IMG/VR virus record: IMGVR_UViG_3300022602_000067
Coordinates: 1-64,000 of that record
DNA length: 64,000 nt
Direction: 5' to 3' (one strand)
DNA from: a virus
Shown here: piece by piece, positions 17,108 through 19,208 of the stretch
Layout of the letters: the number at the start of each line of letters is the position of its first letter
Position numbering within the stretch: the stretch's first letter is position 1
Notes under the pieces: model-generated
What the model saw: the letters and a program-made list of their open reading frames with translations, nothing else
Told to the model about the DNA's origin: nothing
Databases searched by the model: none
Translations under genes and position numbers: made by a program

Positions 17108-17482
17108 ATGGCAAAATTAAGAGATGATATAGAACAAAATTTACCCTTTATTAGCGTCCTTACCTACGGAGATAATGAATACGTAGGAATCATAATAAAT
17201 CAGGATCAATTTGTCACTAGTTTCTACGACTTAAATGCTATCAAAACTCAGGAAGAAAAGACAGCATTTTTAGAAATCGGAGAAACTTGGTGGTGGGAAA
17301 GCAATCGTCAGTTTCCTATCAATATTTTTTGTAGAGAGCAGATTCAACCATTTCATTATGCTATAAAAACTTTTAATAGCAAAGATACAAGAGTATTGTT
17401 AGGTCCTGTTGTAAATCTAATGAATCTCACATTAAAGCGTGTAAAGCGTAAAAGTGTACAGTTAGTCCGTAAGGTTCGCTAA
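17108..17482 (+). CDS. Hypothetical protein (opposite strand to its neighbours)
   Basis: MAKLRDDIEQNLPF...WWWESNR; fills the gap exactly. Confidence 0.75.
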   Translation: MAKLRDDIEQNLPFISVLTYGDNEYVGIIINQDQFVTSFYDLNAIKTQEEKTAFLEIGETWWWESNRQFPINIFCREQIQPFHYAIKTFNSKDTRVLLGPVVNLMNLTLKRVKRKSVQLVRKVR

Positions 17483-18034
17483 TTGCTCGCAGATTAGATT
17501 CATTTGAACTACTATCACATGTGCATACGCAATAGCATGTGCTTTCTTAAAATAGTAGTCTTCATTCTCCGGTTTCATCCAAACTTCCGTCATCACCGTA
17601 GTCCAATCTTTCCCAATCAGATAGCGTTTCGCGGGGCGAATCATAGCCAAAACTGCGGCTAATTGTTCTATCGAGGTAGGCTTCATTTGCCTCAATATAG
17701 AACCATGCCCGTTCACGTGAAATAAGTTGTTGACGAAGTCGTCTTCTAATAATAGATCCCATAGGGGTTCGGTCTCCAATAATTTTTTCAAATGTTCTTT
17801 ATTTCTAACACCATCATAGACACTTACATTCAAAAAATCTATCTTAAAATATCCTCTATCTTCTGCTTCTTTATAGTTTAATGTACTTATTCCTGTTATA
17901 GGATTATATGGTATAGAAGTACAATATACACCGGTATTATGTTTCTTATAAGTGTCGTCCAGGCAGGCATCGACGTGTTTTAACACAGCTAGTGCCCTTG
18001 TCCTATCAGCGAAATCTATATCGATATCTGGCAT
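17462..18034 (-). CDS. dnaE: Miniature DNA polymerase III alpha (DnaE)-like catalytic core
   Basis: PDIDIDF, KHNTGVY, GYFKIDFL, LAMIRP, YYFKKAHAIAYA in only 190 aa. Confidence 0.8.
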   Translation of the reverse strand: MPDIDIDFADRTRALAVLKHVDACLDDTYKKHNTGVYCTSIPYNPITGISTLNYKEAEDRGYFKIDFLNVSVYDGVRNKEHLKKLLETEPLWDLLLEDDFVNNLFHVNGHGSILRQMKPTSIEQLAAVLAMIRPAKRYLIGKDWTTVMTEVWMKPENEDYYFKKAHAIAYAHVIVVQMNLICEQLANLTD

Positions 18035-18729
18035 TATATATTAGACTCTTTAACAACATCTTTGACCAGTGTTACATCATCGGCTAATTTCTTAAACTTT
18101 GACACCCAAAAAGGCGGATCAATAATGGCTTGTATATGTGTCAACTGGTCATCGCTGAATTTTTGTAGCATTGCTTTTCCATTCGTACTGTTCAATATTA
18201 TCCAAGGACTTATTTTACCATCTTTGATATCATAACAGGCACGACTTAGACTCACATATAAGAAATAATGATTCCATTGGGCACTATGTGAGTCTCCCCA
18301 ATCCATCATCGTTTGGATTGATCTTTGGAGTGCTGTTTCGACTGTTTCTCGTCTGATGAGGTCGAGGACGTATTGTTCGTAGAGTTCGTCTCTGCACCAG
18401 TGATCGAGTTTGACACCGCTGGTGACAATATAATTGACAAATCTTTCCGGGTAGAGAGGATTGACATTACTGACAAAACTACCAAACTTAATAAAAGCGT
18501 TATAGTAAGGACTTTTACAAAAATCTTCATAGGTTTTCTCCTGTTTGCTGTTTGGTTGTGCTTGACGATAAAATTTCTGAAAAGCATCAAACGCTAACAA
18601 CACATGTTTTTCATTTTTTGCCAGTGCCCTACGCTTTTGCTCGCACACATGCACGAACAAAGTCTTTTCCTGCATAAAGCCTTTGTTACAATAATCGCAA
18701 GTATAAGGTTGACTAACTAATGACATCAT
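18034..18729 (-). CDS. Zn-finger-containing hypothetical protein
   Basis: YTCDYCNKGF.....LFVHVC C2HC-type finger; coupled to the mini-dnaE. Confidence 0.75.
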   Translation of the reverse strand: MMSLVSQPYTCDYCNKGFMQEKTLFVHVCEQKRRALAKNEKHVLLAFDAFQKFYRQAQPNSKQEKTYEDFCKSPYYNAFIKFGSFVSNVNPLYPERFVNYIVTSGVKLDHWCRDELYEQYVLDLIRRETVETALQRSIQTMMDWGDSHSAQWNHYFLYVSLSRACYDIKDGKISPWIILNSTNGKAMLQKFSDDQLTHIQAIIDPPFWVSKFKKLADDVTLVKDVVKESNI

Positions 18730-19208
18730 TTAAGTTTTTTAGCAATAGTGGCTTCGTCCATACCATATTGTCTAGCAAGTTCTTTTATTTCTTTATCAGT
18801 TGACATTTCAGCCAGCATTTCTAATTCGTCCATTTTTCTTGTAGGATATATTTCTTCAAGAAATTTCAATCTTTTGCCCCCAGTGCCTGTTTTCTTCTTA
18901 TTGCCTATCCAGTTATGATAGAATGTTTTTTCGCCGTTATAACTGCACATACATAACAATAACCACAATAGTTTAGGATGTTTTTGTATGTCATTCCAAT
19001 TTTTATTAAAATATTCGTTAACTGTCAAAACAAAATGCTCTTGGATTTCTCTTTTTTGATCCTGCGCACTGCTAATATATCGATTTAAGATAAAAAATTC
19101 GCTCTTAAGACTCTTTTGCTGTGCAGGAGTCATTTCATCCCATGCCGCACGAACATTTAAGTCGACAAAAGCTATCTTTTCTTTTAATTCGATTTTATCG
19201 TCACTCAT
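18726..19208 (-). CDS. Clamp loader small subunit-like (T4 gp62-like)
   Basis: FILNRYISS...VNEYFN..HPKLLWLL...WIGNKKK pattern and replication context. Confidence 0.55.
   Translation of the reverse strand: MSDDKIELKEKIAFVDLNVRAAWDEMTPAQQKSLKSEFFILNRYISSAQDQKREIQEHFVLTVNEYFNKNWNDIQKHPKLLWLLLCMCSYNGEKTFYHNWIGNKKKTGTGGKRLKFLEEIYPTRKMDELEMLAEMSTDKEIKELARQYGMDEATIAKKLK

Follow-up and report, generated by a model that had tools for sequence, protein, structure and literature searches.

The window under study, a stretch of 64,000 nucleotides (nt) of an uncultured giant phage (positions 1 to 64,000 of the IMG/VR record IMGVR_UViG_3300022602_000067, which is 81,012 bp long and estimated to be 23% complete), encodes on its minus strand (17462..18034) an intact open reading frame (ORF) of 190 amino acids (aa) that runs from ATG to stop. 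Its product is homologous to the alpha subunit of bacterial DNA polymerase III (Pol III) and very probably represents the C-terminal unit of a two-piece minimal family-C polymerase typical of jumbo phages of the RaK2/PA5oct/Atu_ph07 type, i.e., the part of a split minimal Pol III alpha that would carry the catalytic aspartates and a minimal finger region (hereafter the C-unit). This assignment is based on the ORF, on PHROG and phmmer searches, on an AlphaFold2 (AF2) model and on structural comparisons with Foldseek and VIA-align (VIA). A first-pass annotation of this DNA had assigned the DnaE-like feature to 17462-19208, a range that covers three genes, of which only 17462-18034 is DnaE-like. 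The start codon of the C-unit gene shares the letters TAATG with the stop codon (TAA) of a 231-aa Zn-finger gene (18034..18729), which in turn overlaps by 4 nt with a 160-aa gene (18726..19208), so that the clean start and stop and the translational coupling described earlier stand as they were. At its 3' end the C-unit gene overlaps by 21 nt (17462-17482) with a convergent 137-aa ORF.

The DnaE motifs that the first-pass annotation had pointed out in the 190-aa product all lie at the places claimed. The protein starts with MPDIDIDF (residues 1-8), in which DIDID (residues 3-7; 18014-18028, minus strand) is the putative strand with the metal-binding Asp pair; it appears to be equivalent to the strand bearing D401 and D403 of the Escherichia coli enzyme, the pair falling within D3, D5 and D7. 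The motif KHNTGVY follows at residues 31-37 and KIDFL at residues 64-68 (FKIDFLN, 63-69), where K64-I-D66 (17837..17845, minus strand) belongs to the strand predicted to hold the third catalytic Asp, D66 being the apparent equivalent of E. coli D555. R133-P134 (17633..17638, minus strand) is part of the finger motif IRPAK (residues 132-136; IRPxK) and aligns to the RPG motif of Mycobacterium tuberculosis DnaE1. The last of these elements, FKKAHAIAY (residues 162-170; 17525..17551, minus strand; YYFKKAHAIAY, 160-170), corresponds to the finger 'O-helix' motif and includes H166, which is likely the steric-gate His, as compared with E. coli H760. The structural alignment, in which model residues 1..187 pair with E. 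coli residues 400..781, would bring H166 to about position 760 provided that the last helix is aligned without gaps. Passages of a study on the E. coli enzyme (PMC8485763) give D401, D403 and D555 as the active site; the sugar steric gate is there assigned to H760 of the finger 'O-helix', a His described as invariant in Pol III alpha.

The relationship with family-C polymerases emerges from several independent collections. The protein matches PHROG 11778 ('DNA polymerase') from end to end over the 197-position profile (E 2.6e-69), and two NCBIfam models of Pol III alpha retrieve it at E 5e-5 and 9.5e-5. A phmmer search of the PDB returned M. tuberculosis DnaE1 as the sole match (E 2e-4), in four collinear pieces in which MPDIDIDF meets the same motif and fkidfl meets lkmdfl; the piece that pairs yyfkkahaiay with yafnkshaagy is weak on its own. 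Pfam provides only a weak finger-domain match for the C-unit, and the alignment to PF07733 is limited to profile positions 101-116, that is, the MPDIDIDF strand.

A split minimal Pol III alpha has been described in group 2.2 jumbo phages (Iyer et al., 2021; Viruses 13:63, PMC7824862). That article reports an N-terminal unit that binds NTP and a C-terminal one that binds Mg2+ and the template; they are encoded by distant genes, occur beside a family B polymerase and come with no other Pol III domains. It proposes the split enzyme as a model for an ancestral Pol III module. The window copy is a member of this C-terminal unit family and is nothing new in kind. It agrees with the published unit in its length (ca. 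190 aa from the DxDxD strand), catalytic Asp residues, reduced finger and lack of other Pol III domains, as well as in the phage group (RaK2, PA5oct, Atu_ph07) and gene order; it differs in that it belongs to an uncultured clade (50-54% identity to the nearest cultured phages) and in that neither its partner nor a family B polymerase is contained in the fragment. Many members of the family have already been labelled DNA polymerase or Pol III alpha by GenBank and JGI annotators.

The family is widely represented among giant phages. A tblastn search with the C-unit found 96 phage records, every one of them below 60% identity and all from jumbo phages of the RaK2, 121Q, PA5oct and Atu_ph07 type, with hosts that include Escherichia (34), Pseudomonas (11), Klebsiella (11), Salmonella (8), Erwinia (8) and others. 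The closest cultured relatives are Atu_ph07 (53.6%), Phosso (51.4%) and PA5oct (50.0%), and identity to RaK2, PA5oct and Atu_ph07 together spans 41-54%. In IMG/VR, 600 candidate stretches were screened and 560 of them proved to be relatives. A collection of 5.8 billion proteins (90% level) holds at least 8000 members, since all of the 8000 candidates scored pass E <= 1e-3; among the matches listed they measure 186-204 aa and many bear the JGI name 'DNA polymerase III alpha subunit'. At 50% identity, 422 clusters match at E <= 1e-3 and 280 at E <= 1e-10. The split mini Pol III is therefore common among giant phages of the environment. At 80% likeness, metatranscriptome libraries yield short, diverged contigs of relatives that map on the C-unit gene (e.g., records of 579 and 706 nt that span about 17050-17630 with 87-92 differences); such libraries can contain DNA, so these placements do not speak for transcription. 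Individual sequencing runs contain only small shares of the query words (0.04-0.06).

Conservation was examined at two depths. An alignment (A2) of the window protein with 81 near-full-length representatives, reaching down to 31% identity, was drawn from 150 listed representatives, the 69 left aside being fragments shorter than 179 aa, the 375-aa protein P0238 (see below) and the 233-aa protein P0261. D3, D5, K64, D66, R133 and P134 are invariant (82/82), D7, H32 and H166 are each kept in 81 of the 82 proteins, and the first Asp is preceded by just 1-17 residues in every one of them. For the closer set, 80 loci with full-length identity of 68-87% were kept from the 560 IMG/VR relatives. The frame is open at all 80, with an ATG start and 186-195 aa in 78 of them and TTG or GTG starts in the remaining two (L057 and L085), and 56 of the 190 positions are invariant. 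The median ratio of nonsynonymous to synonymous substitutions (dN/dS; NG86, Nei-Gojobori) against the window copy is 0.078 over the 49 of 78 pairs with computable dS, the other 29 having been excluded for saturation of synonymous sites; with the remaining dS values all at or above 1.1 this figure is a rough one. The C-unit is under purifying selection.

These data bear on the idea that the gene is a decaying, non-functional remnant of a dnaE captured from a host, an idea invited by the small fraction of the DnaE length that is retained and by scores below the curated family cut-offs. The 80 open loci, a dN/dS of about 0.08, the invariant catalytic residues and a confident and compact structural model argue against decay, as do the 422 clusters and the at least 8000 relatives at E <= 1e-3, and a remnant has next to no probability. 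The opinion of the first-pass annotation that the gene is not a decayed fragment holds: no frameshift decay was seen at any of the 80 loci and the Asp residues are conserved.

The AF2 model of the C-unit, built with A2 as input, has a predicted local distance difference test score (pLDDT) of 96.8 and a predicted template modelling score (pTM) of 0.89. The fold is that of family-C polymerases. In a Foldseek search of the PDB, ranks 1-17 (E 3.4e-4 to 0.23) are C-family polymerase entries only, namely the Pol III alpha/DnaE proteins of Taq, M. tuberculosis and E. coli and entries aligned at PolC-type numbering, and unrelated chains begin at E 0.89. VIA gives 16 C-family rows with Z values of 6.1-9.8, 172-187 of the 190 residues aligned and a root-mean-square deviation (rmsd) of 3.2-4.3, the next row having a Z of 3.3. 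The model spans residues 461..841 of the Taq enzyme, 419..811 of M. tuberculosis, 400..781 of E. coli and 971..1299 of Geobacillus kaustophilus PolC. The 190 residues thus cover approximately 380 of the bacterial enzyme; the thumb appears to have shrunk to a short connection and the fingers to roughly half. The whole protein corresponds to E. coli alpha 400..781 and contains no PHP, clamp-binding or OB part, as had been remarked earlier, Pfam offering no more than the finger match mentioned above. The PHP domain (PF02811) was likewise absent from all five records searched (the window's own and four relatives), with a control that was positive in 14 of 14 genomes.

Whether such a protein could work by itself is a question raised by the first-pass annotation, which regarded it as a minimal or multi-subunit C-family enzyme with the neighbouring gene products as accessory subunits. 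In its stronger form this would be a complete 190-aa polymerase assisted by the Zn-finger, 160-aa and 137-aa products, an interpretation that is consistent with the presence of all three Asp residues and the finger motifs, with the translational coupling and with neighbours that hold their position in PA5oct, Atu_ph07 and RaK2. The protein alone does not contain a complete Pol-beta-like core (helix, G[GS] loop, DxD strand and third acid): with a lead of only 1-17 residues ahead of the first Asp in each of the 82 proteins, the half with the helix and the GS loop is absent, and no Pol-beta-fold nucleotidyltransferase occurs among the VIA matches of the C-unit model. The C-unit is half of a catalytic core and not a self-contained mini-polymerase.

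The missing half is a separate conserved gene. When the complete RaK2, Atu_ph07 and PA5oct records were searched with PF07733, all three showed a second gene that matches profile positions 18-98; these ORFs (hereafter N-units) encode 169-177 aa and end in ...GVGRGSSV.SY...KY.LD..EFL, an ending that reads as the Pol-beta-like helix together with its phosphate-binding GS loop. The chain is split just ahead of the Met that opens the conserved MPDxDxDF motif, and on the 1146-position DnaE model of NCBIfam the N-unit lies at 306-394 and the window C-unit at 595-638. N-units were also found in four of ten large related IMG/VR contigs, which are the four most complete (51-83%), as a single ORF of 166-170 aa in each; expressed in another way, four of the five largest relatives carry one. 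A tblastn search with the N-unit gave 109 phage records with genus counts nearly equal to those of the C-unit (N-unit/C-unit: Escherichia 34/34, Pseudomonas 11/11, Klebsiella 10/11, Salmonella 8/8, Erwinia 8/8, Xanthomonas 4/4, Yersinia 4/4 and Agrobacterium 2/2). It also returned 14 Bacillus phage records; among the matches listed, most carry the annotation Pol III alpha subunit and one that of a PHP domain-containing protein.

The two genes are far apart. The distance from N-unit to C-unit is about 163, 184, 171 and 159 kb in the four IMG/VR contigs and about 34 kb in RaK2, 44 kb in PA5oct and 182 kb in Atu_ph07, the gap of the clade (159-184 kb) thus contrasting with those of RaK2 and PA5oct. 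With units placed 159-184 kb apart in relatives, no N-unit is expected on the present fragment. In the Ralstonia phage RsoM2USA (MG752970.1) the units are about 4 kb apart on the same strand (133450-133872 and 138067-138381), the C-unit match there spanning residues 3-140 only. Directly after the N-unit gene, an ORF of about 110-136 aa is found in RaK2, PA5oct, Atu_ph07 and two IMG/VR relatives (L007:1802-2161(+), L005:1738-2079(+), L006:1087-1497(-), L089:1921-2256(+) and L091:1145-1471(-)); these conserved ORFs share the motif ..VNARGD.(L/I)G.GG.. and are candidate partners of the N-unit.

Both halves also occur in nature as a single chain. In P0238 (375 aa) the C-unit match occupies residues 190-371 and is preceded by ...GVGRGSSSAS...KYKLNIKEFIK. 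A search with P0238 retrieved 16 proteins, three of which are fused (P0238, P0274 and P0275, from the ENA and Logan collections; 375-376 aa, 78-81% identical); the others comprise 11 separate C-units of 206-222 aa and two weak matches of 540-551 aa with PHP and PF07733. Single-chain forms are therefore rare (3/16). In alignment A5 the N-units map on fused residues 1-184 with 29-36% identity, followed by a 10-residue linker and the DxDxD of the C-unit; alignments A3 (87 rows) and A4 (23 rows) were discarded as they placed N-units onto the C-half. Three longer relatives of the C-unit, found among 676 candidates, were not accepted as fusions: P0121 joins the first ca. 140 C-unit residues to a UvsW C-terminus and is probably an assembly chimera or a deletion, P0123 combines a bacterial exonuclease-PHP N-terminus with the phage tail motif ..YYFKKAHAVAYAHVIVVQMNLICE and is probably also a chimera or deletion, and P0122, with a long unrelated N-terminal extension, was read as a chimera or a miscalled start.

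The AF2 model of P0238, built on the 11 sequences of A5 only and hence on a shallow alignment, has a pLDDT of 82.2 and a pTM of 0.77, with residues 1-9 and 71-79 below 50. Its 16 rows with Pol III alpha/PolC reach Z values of 11.8-21.5, the best being 5LEW (334 residues, rmsd 4.3). Behind them, at Z 3.0-4.0, come nucleotidyltransferases of the Pol-beta fold (CCA-adding enzyme, ANT(2''), MenT, Pol beta 151-263 and Cid1), whose matches cover residues ca. 103-267 and hence span the junction between the N- and C-halves. Residues 1-80 of the model are of low confidence (block means 39-77), and VIA aligns them to the very start (the first 12-47 residues) of Pol III alpha chains from bacteria, which may reflect a remnant of the connection between PHP and palm or be noise.

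Taken with the C-unit model, which has no such transferase matches, the junction-spanning ones speak for a core that is complete only when both halves are present, and the missing half is a conserved gene that three natural proteins join to the C-unit. Together with neighbours in which no polymerase-related domain could be recognized, this makes a stand-alone 190-aa polymerase improbable. The part of the earlier proposal that stands is that the gene encodes a conserved catalytic piece of a multi-subunit enzyme; its description as a complete minimal polymerase does not. Because the N-unit holds the GRGS half and is fused to the C-unit in natural proteins, the catalytic partner would be the distant N-unit and not the products of adjacent genes.

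Two distant genes for one C-family polymerase are also known from cyanobacteria, where, according to passages of PMC3919608, the halves of DnaE are joined by a natural split intein. By analogy, the two phage products could be spliced in trans. This precedent is the point in favor of trans-splicing, for which the phage proteins leave no room: N-units end at EFL[KR] (fused residue 184), C-units start at DxDxD with 1-17 residues before the first Asp in the 82 proteins, and the linker of the fused forms has only 10 residues. Unlike in cyanobacterial split DnaE there are no intein-sized extensions and the break lies inside the palm, just before the DxDxD strand. An intein-joined enzyme is accordingly extremely improbable.

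For the two-piece polymerase the following mechanism is proposed. The C-unit would supply the strands with the three metal-binding Asp residues (a pair within D3/D5/D7, and D66), K64 and a reduced finger with the RP motif and H166, while the N-unit (about 168 aa; ...GVGRGSSVASY...KYNLDW.EFLR), encoded elsewhere in the genome, would contribute the first Pol-beta-like half with the GS loop for the triphosphate. Both units may associate noncovalently and rebuild one active site, which would extend a primer along a template with deoxynucleotides; mainly on account of the retained steric-gate His, a deoxynucleotide-selective enzyme is expected. Given that PHP, proofreading, thumb, clamp-binding and OB parts are lacking, the heterodimer would presumably be a short-patch enzyme of low processivity that acts beside a family B replicase in primer extension, gap filling or repair.

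An alternative that accepts the two units as one enzyme assigns it another chemistry, i.e., a nucleotidyl transfer such as tailing, nucleotide-signal synthesis or nucleotidylation of proteins or nucleic acids, or else a non-catalytic role in binding replication factors. The extent of what is lost (the clamp-binding and OB parts, the thumb and the greater part of the fingers, 190 residues covering E. coli 400..781) is compatible with such functions; the Pol-beta fold is common to many non-polymerase transferases (VIA rows 17-50 of P0238) and no bench test was found in the literature. However, the finger motifs that remain are those of DnaE itself, including the steric-gate His (81/82), a residue to which passages of PMC8485763 ascribe that role, replicative C-family polymerases are by far the best structural matches (Z 21.5 vs. 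4.0), the gene lies two genes from a primase within a replication block, and the invariant Asp, Lys and Arg residues point to catalysis. A function other than templated synthesis is thus considered unlikely.

Several observations weigh against the two-piece polymerase proposed here. The C-unit scores far below curated cut-offs (TIGR00594, 21.5 bits vs. 434; PF07733, 10 bits vs. 23.9). The N-unit was not found in the 81-kb record by regular expressions, tblastn, a hidden Markov model (HMM) or PF07733: a six-frame search for GS-loop motifs detected just unrelated Gly/Ser-rich structural proteins, the three reference N-units used as tblastn queries reached no better E than 1.0, and the best hit of a three-sequence N-unit HMM (E 0.038, 9.9 bits; 27888-28124) was taken as noise. 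Six of the ten large related contigs have no N-unit either, all six being 29-42% complete. A family B polymerase (PF00136) was not detected in the 81-kb record; ORFs of 890-892 aa with this domain are present in three of five large related contigs. The search for other DnaE pieces or a PolB that had been suggested at the outset was therefore negative in the record itself and successful in relatives (N-unit in 4/10, PolB in 3/5), and with a record that is 23% complete the presence of both in this phage is extrapolated from those relatives. A nearly thumbless protein with very short fingers may need other factors for templated synthesis, or its chemistry may differ. Lastly, literature searches brought up no report in which the split or minimal phage enzyme had been tested biochemically or genetically; the Pol III passages of a paper on phage PaBG deal with the beta and gamma subunits instead.

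Compared with bacterial DnaE and PolC (2HNH, 2HPI, 3E0D, 5LEW and 3F2B), the phage enzyme shares the Pol-beta-like palm with its Asp triad, the K-x-D-F-L strand, the RP motif and the F-x-K-S-H-A-x-x-Y finger helix, but it is far smaller (190 aa, or about 360 for both units, vs. more than 900-1100 aa), has no PHP, clamp-binding, OB or tau-binding parts, and has its palm divided over two polypeptides. No smaller relative of the bacterial replicative polymerase is known than this family, whose active site would be shared by two proteins and whose phages also possess a family B replicase of the archaeo-eukaryotic type. The present analysis extends the published account with the natural 375-aa forms (the figures or supplements of Iyer et al. 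may list such proteins), with a steric-gate His that is nearly invariant, and with the distances that separate N-unit and C-unit genes in this clade.

The genes around the C-unit are conserved in position. By tblastn, the order UvsW, 168-aa protein, 160-aa protein, Zn-finger protein, C-unit, 137-aa ORF and primase is the same in PA5oct, Atu_ph07 and RaK2, and the setting of group 2 jumbo phages, with a UvsW-type helicase, a gp32-type single-stranded DNA-binding protein and a T4-like primase and helicase, is present in the window. This conserved synteny makes a functional link with the neighbours possible. The Zn-finger neighbour (231 aa, 18034..18729, minus strand) has an N-terminal C2H2-like motif and belongs to PHROG 11058 ('unknown function', E 2.1e-63); its zf-C2H2 match is weak (E 0.013, below the cut-off), and its relatives in the atlas form phage-only, mostly unnamed clusters, one of which has zf-C2H2 on 11% of its members. 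The 160-aa neighbour (18726..19208, minus strand) matches PHROG 11758 ('unknown function', E 4.2e-11) and, in Pfam, DUF1413 at E 0.0034, below its cut-off. This product had been called 'gp62-like', a name that finds no backing, as no clamp-loader match was obtained in Pfam (E <= 0.1) or NCBIfam. The convergent ORF (17069..17482, plus strand; 137 aa from TTG) matches PHROG 11637 (E 3.7e-32), and an opposite-strand ORF is annotated tail-to-tail at the same place in RaK2, Atu_ph07 and PA5oct; the gene that the first-pass annotation had begun at an ATG (17108-17482) is thus the same one with a different start. No polymerase-related domain was recognized in these neighbours with Pfam, PHROG, NCBIfam or the atlas. 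The proposal that they are accessory subunits gained no supporting result, and what the conserved positions in RaK2, PA5oct and Atu_ph07 allow is that such a role is possible.

A more specific and rather doubtful version of the two-piece polymerase takes this neighbourhood into account. The mini Pol III could be a dedicated primer-extension polymerase beside the primase, in a role like that of Pol alpha or Bacillus subtilis DnaE, extending RNA primers by a short DNA patch and handing them to the family B polymerase, with the Zn-finger neighbour as a third, DNA- or primase-binding subunit. In passages of PMC5627055, B. subtilis DnaE appears as a second, primer-extending polymerase beside PolC; the analogy, a C-family enzyme near a primase and beside a main replicase, is speculative, and the bacterial protein differs from the phage enzyme in being full-length and clamp-using. 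If this were true, PolB-based viral replisomes would routinely use a bacterial-type family C enzyme of about 360 residues, the smallest known, and the natural 375-aa fusions would offer a one-chain version for structural work.

The remaining genes of the region complete the picture of a replication block with some insertions. A DnaB-like helicase is encoded at 11947-13374 and a primase, two genes from the C-unit, at 14957-15949; between them a complete carbamoyltransferase gene is inserted (13390-14859, minus strand; Carbam_trans_N E 6e-40, Carbam_trans_C E 1e-46). A 369-aa protein encoded between the primase and the 137-aa ORF has a weak match to a virion structural protein PHROG (E 0.0027) and occupies the site where RaK2 and PA5oct annotate a structural protein. 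On the other side of the C-unit, the cluster from UvsW to primase is interrupted by a 97-aa ORF (19201-19494, minus strand) and a 2OG-Fe(II) oxygenase (19494-20129, minus strand; PF13759, E 7.9e-19), for neither of which tblastn finds a counterpart in the syntenic regions of RaK2, PA5oct and Atu_ph07. The 168-aa protein is encoded between the oxygenase and the UvsW-like gene (20639-22108), whose product is 50% identical to the Atu_ph07 and PA5oct copies, and RecA/UvsX-like and gp32-like ORFs occur further along the same T4-like replication/recombination block.

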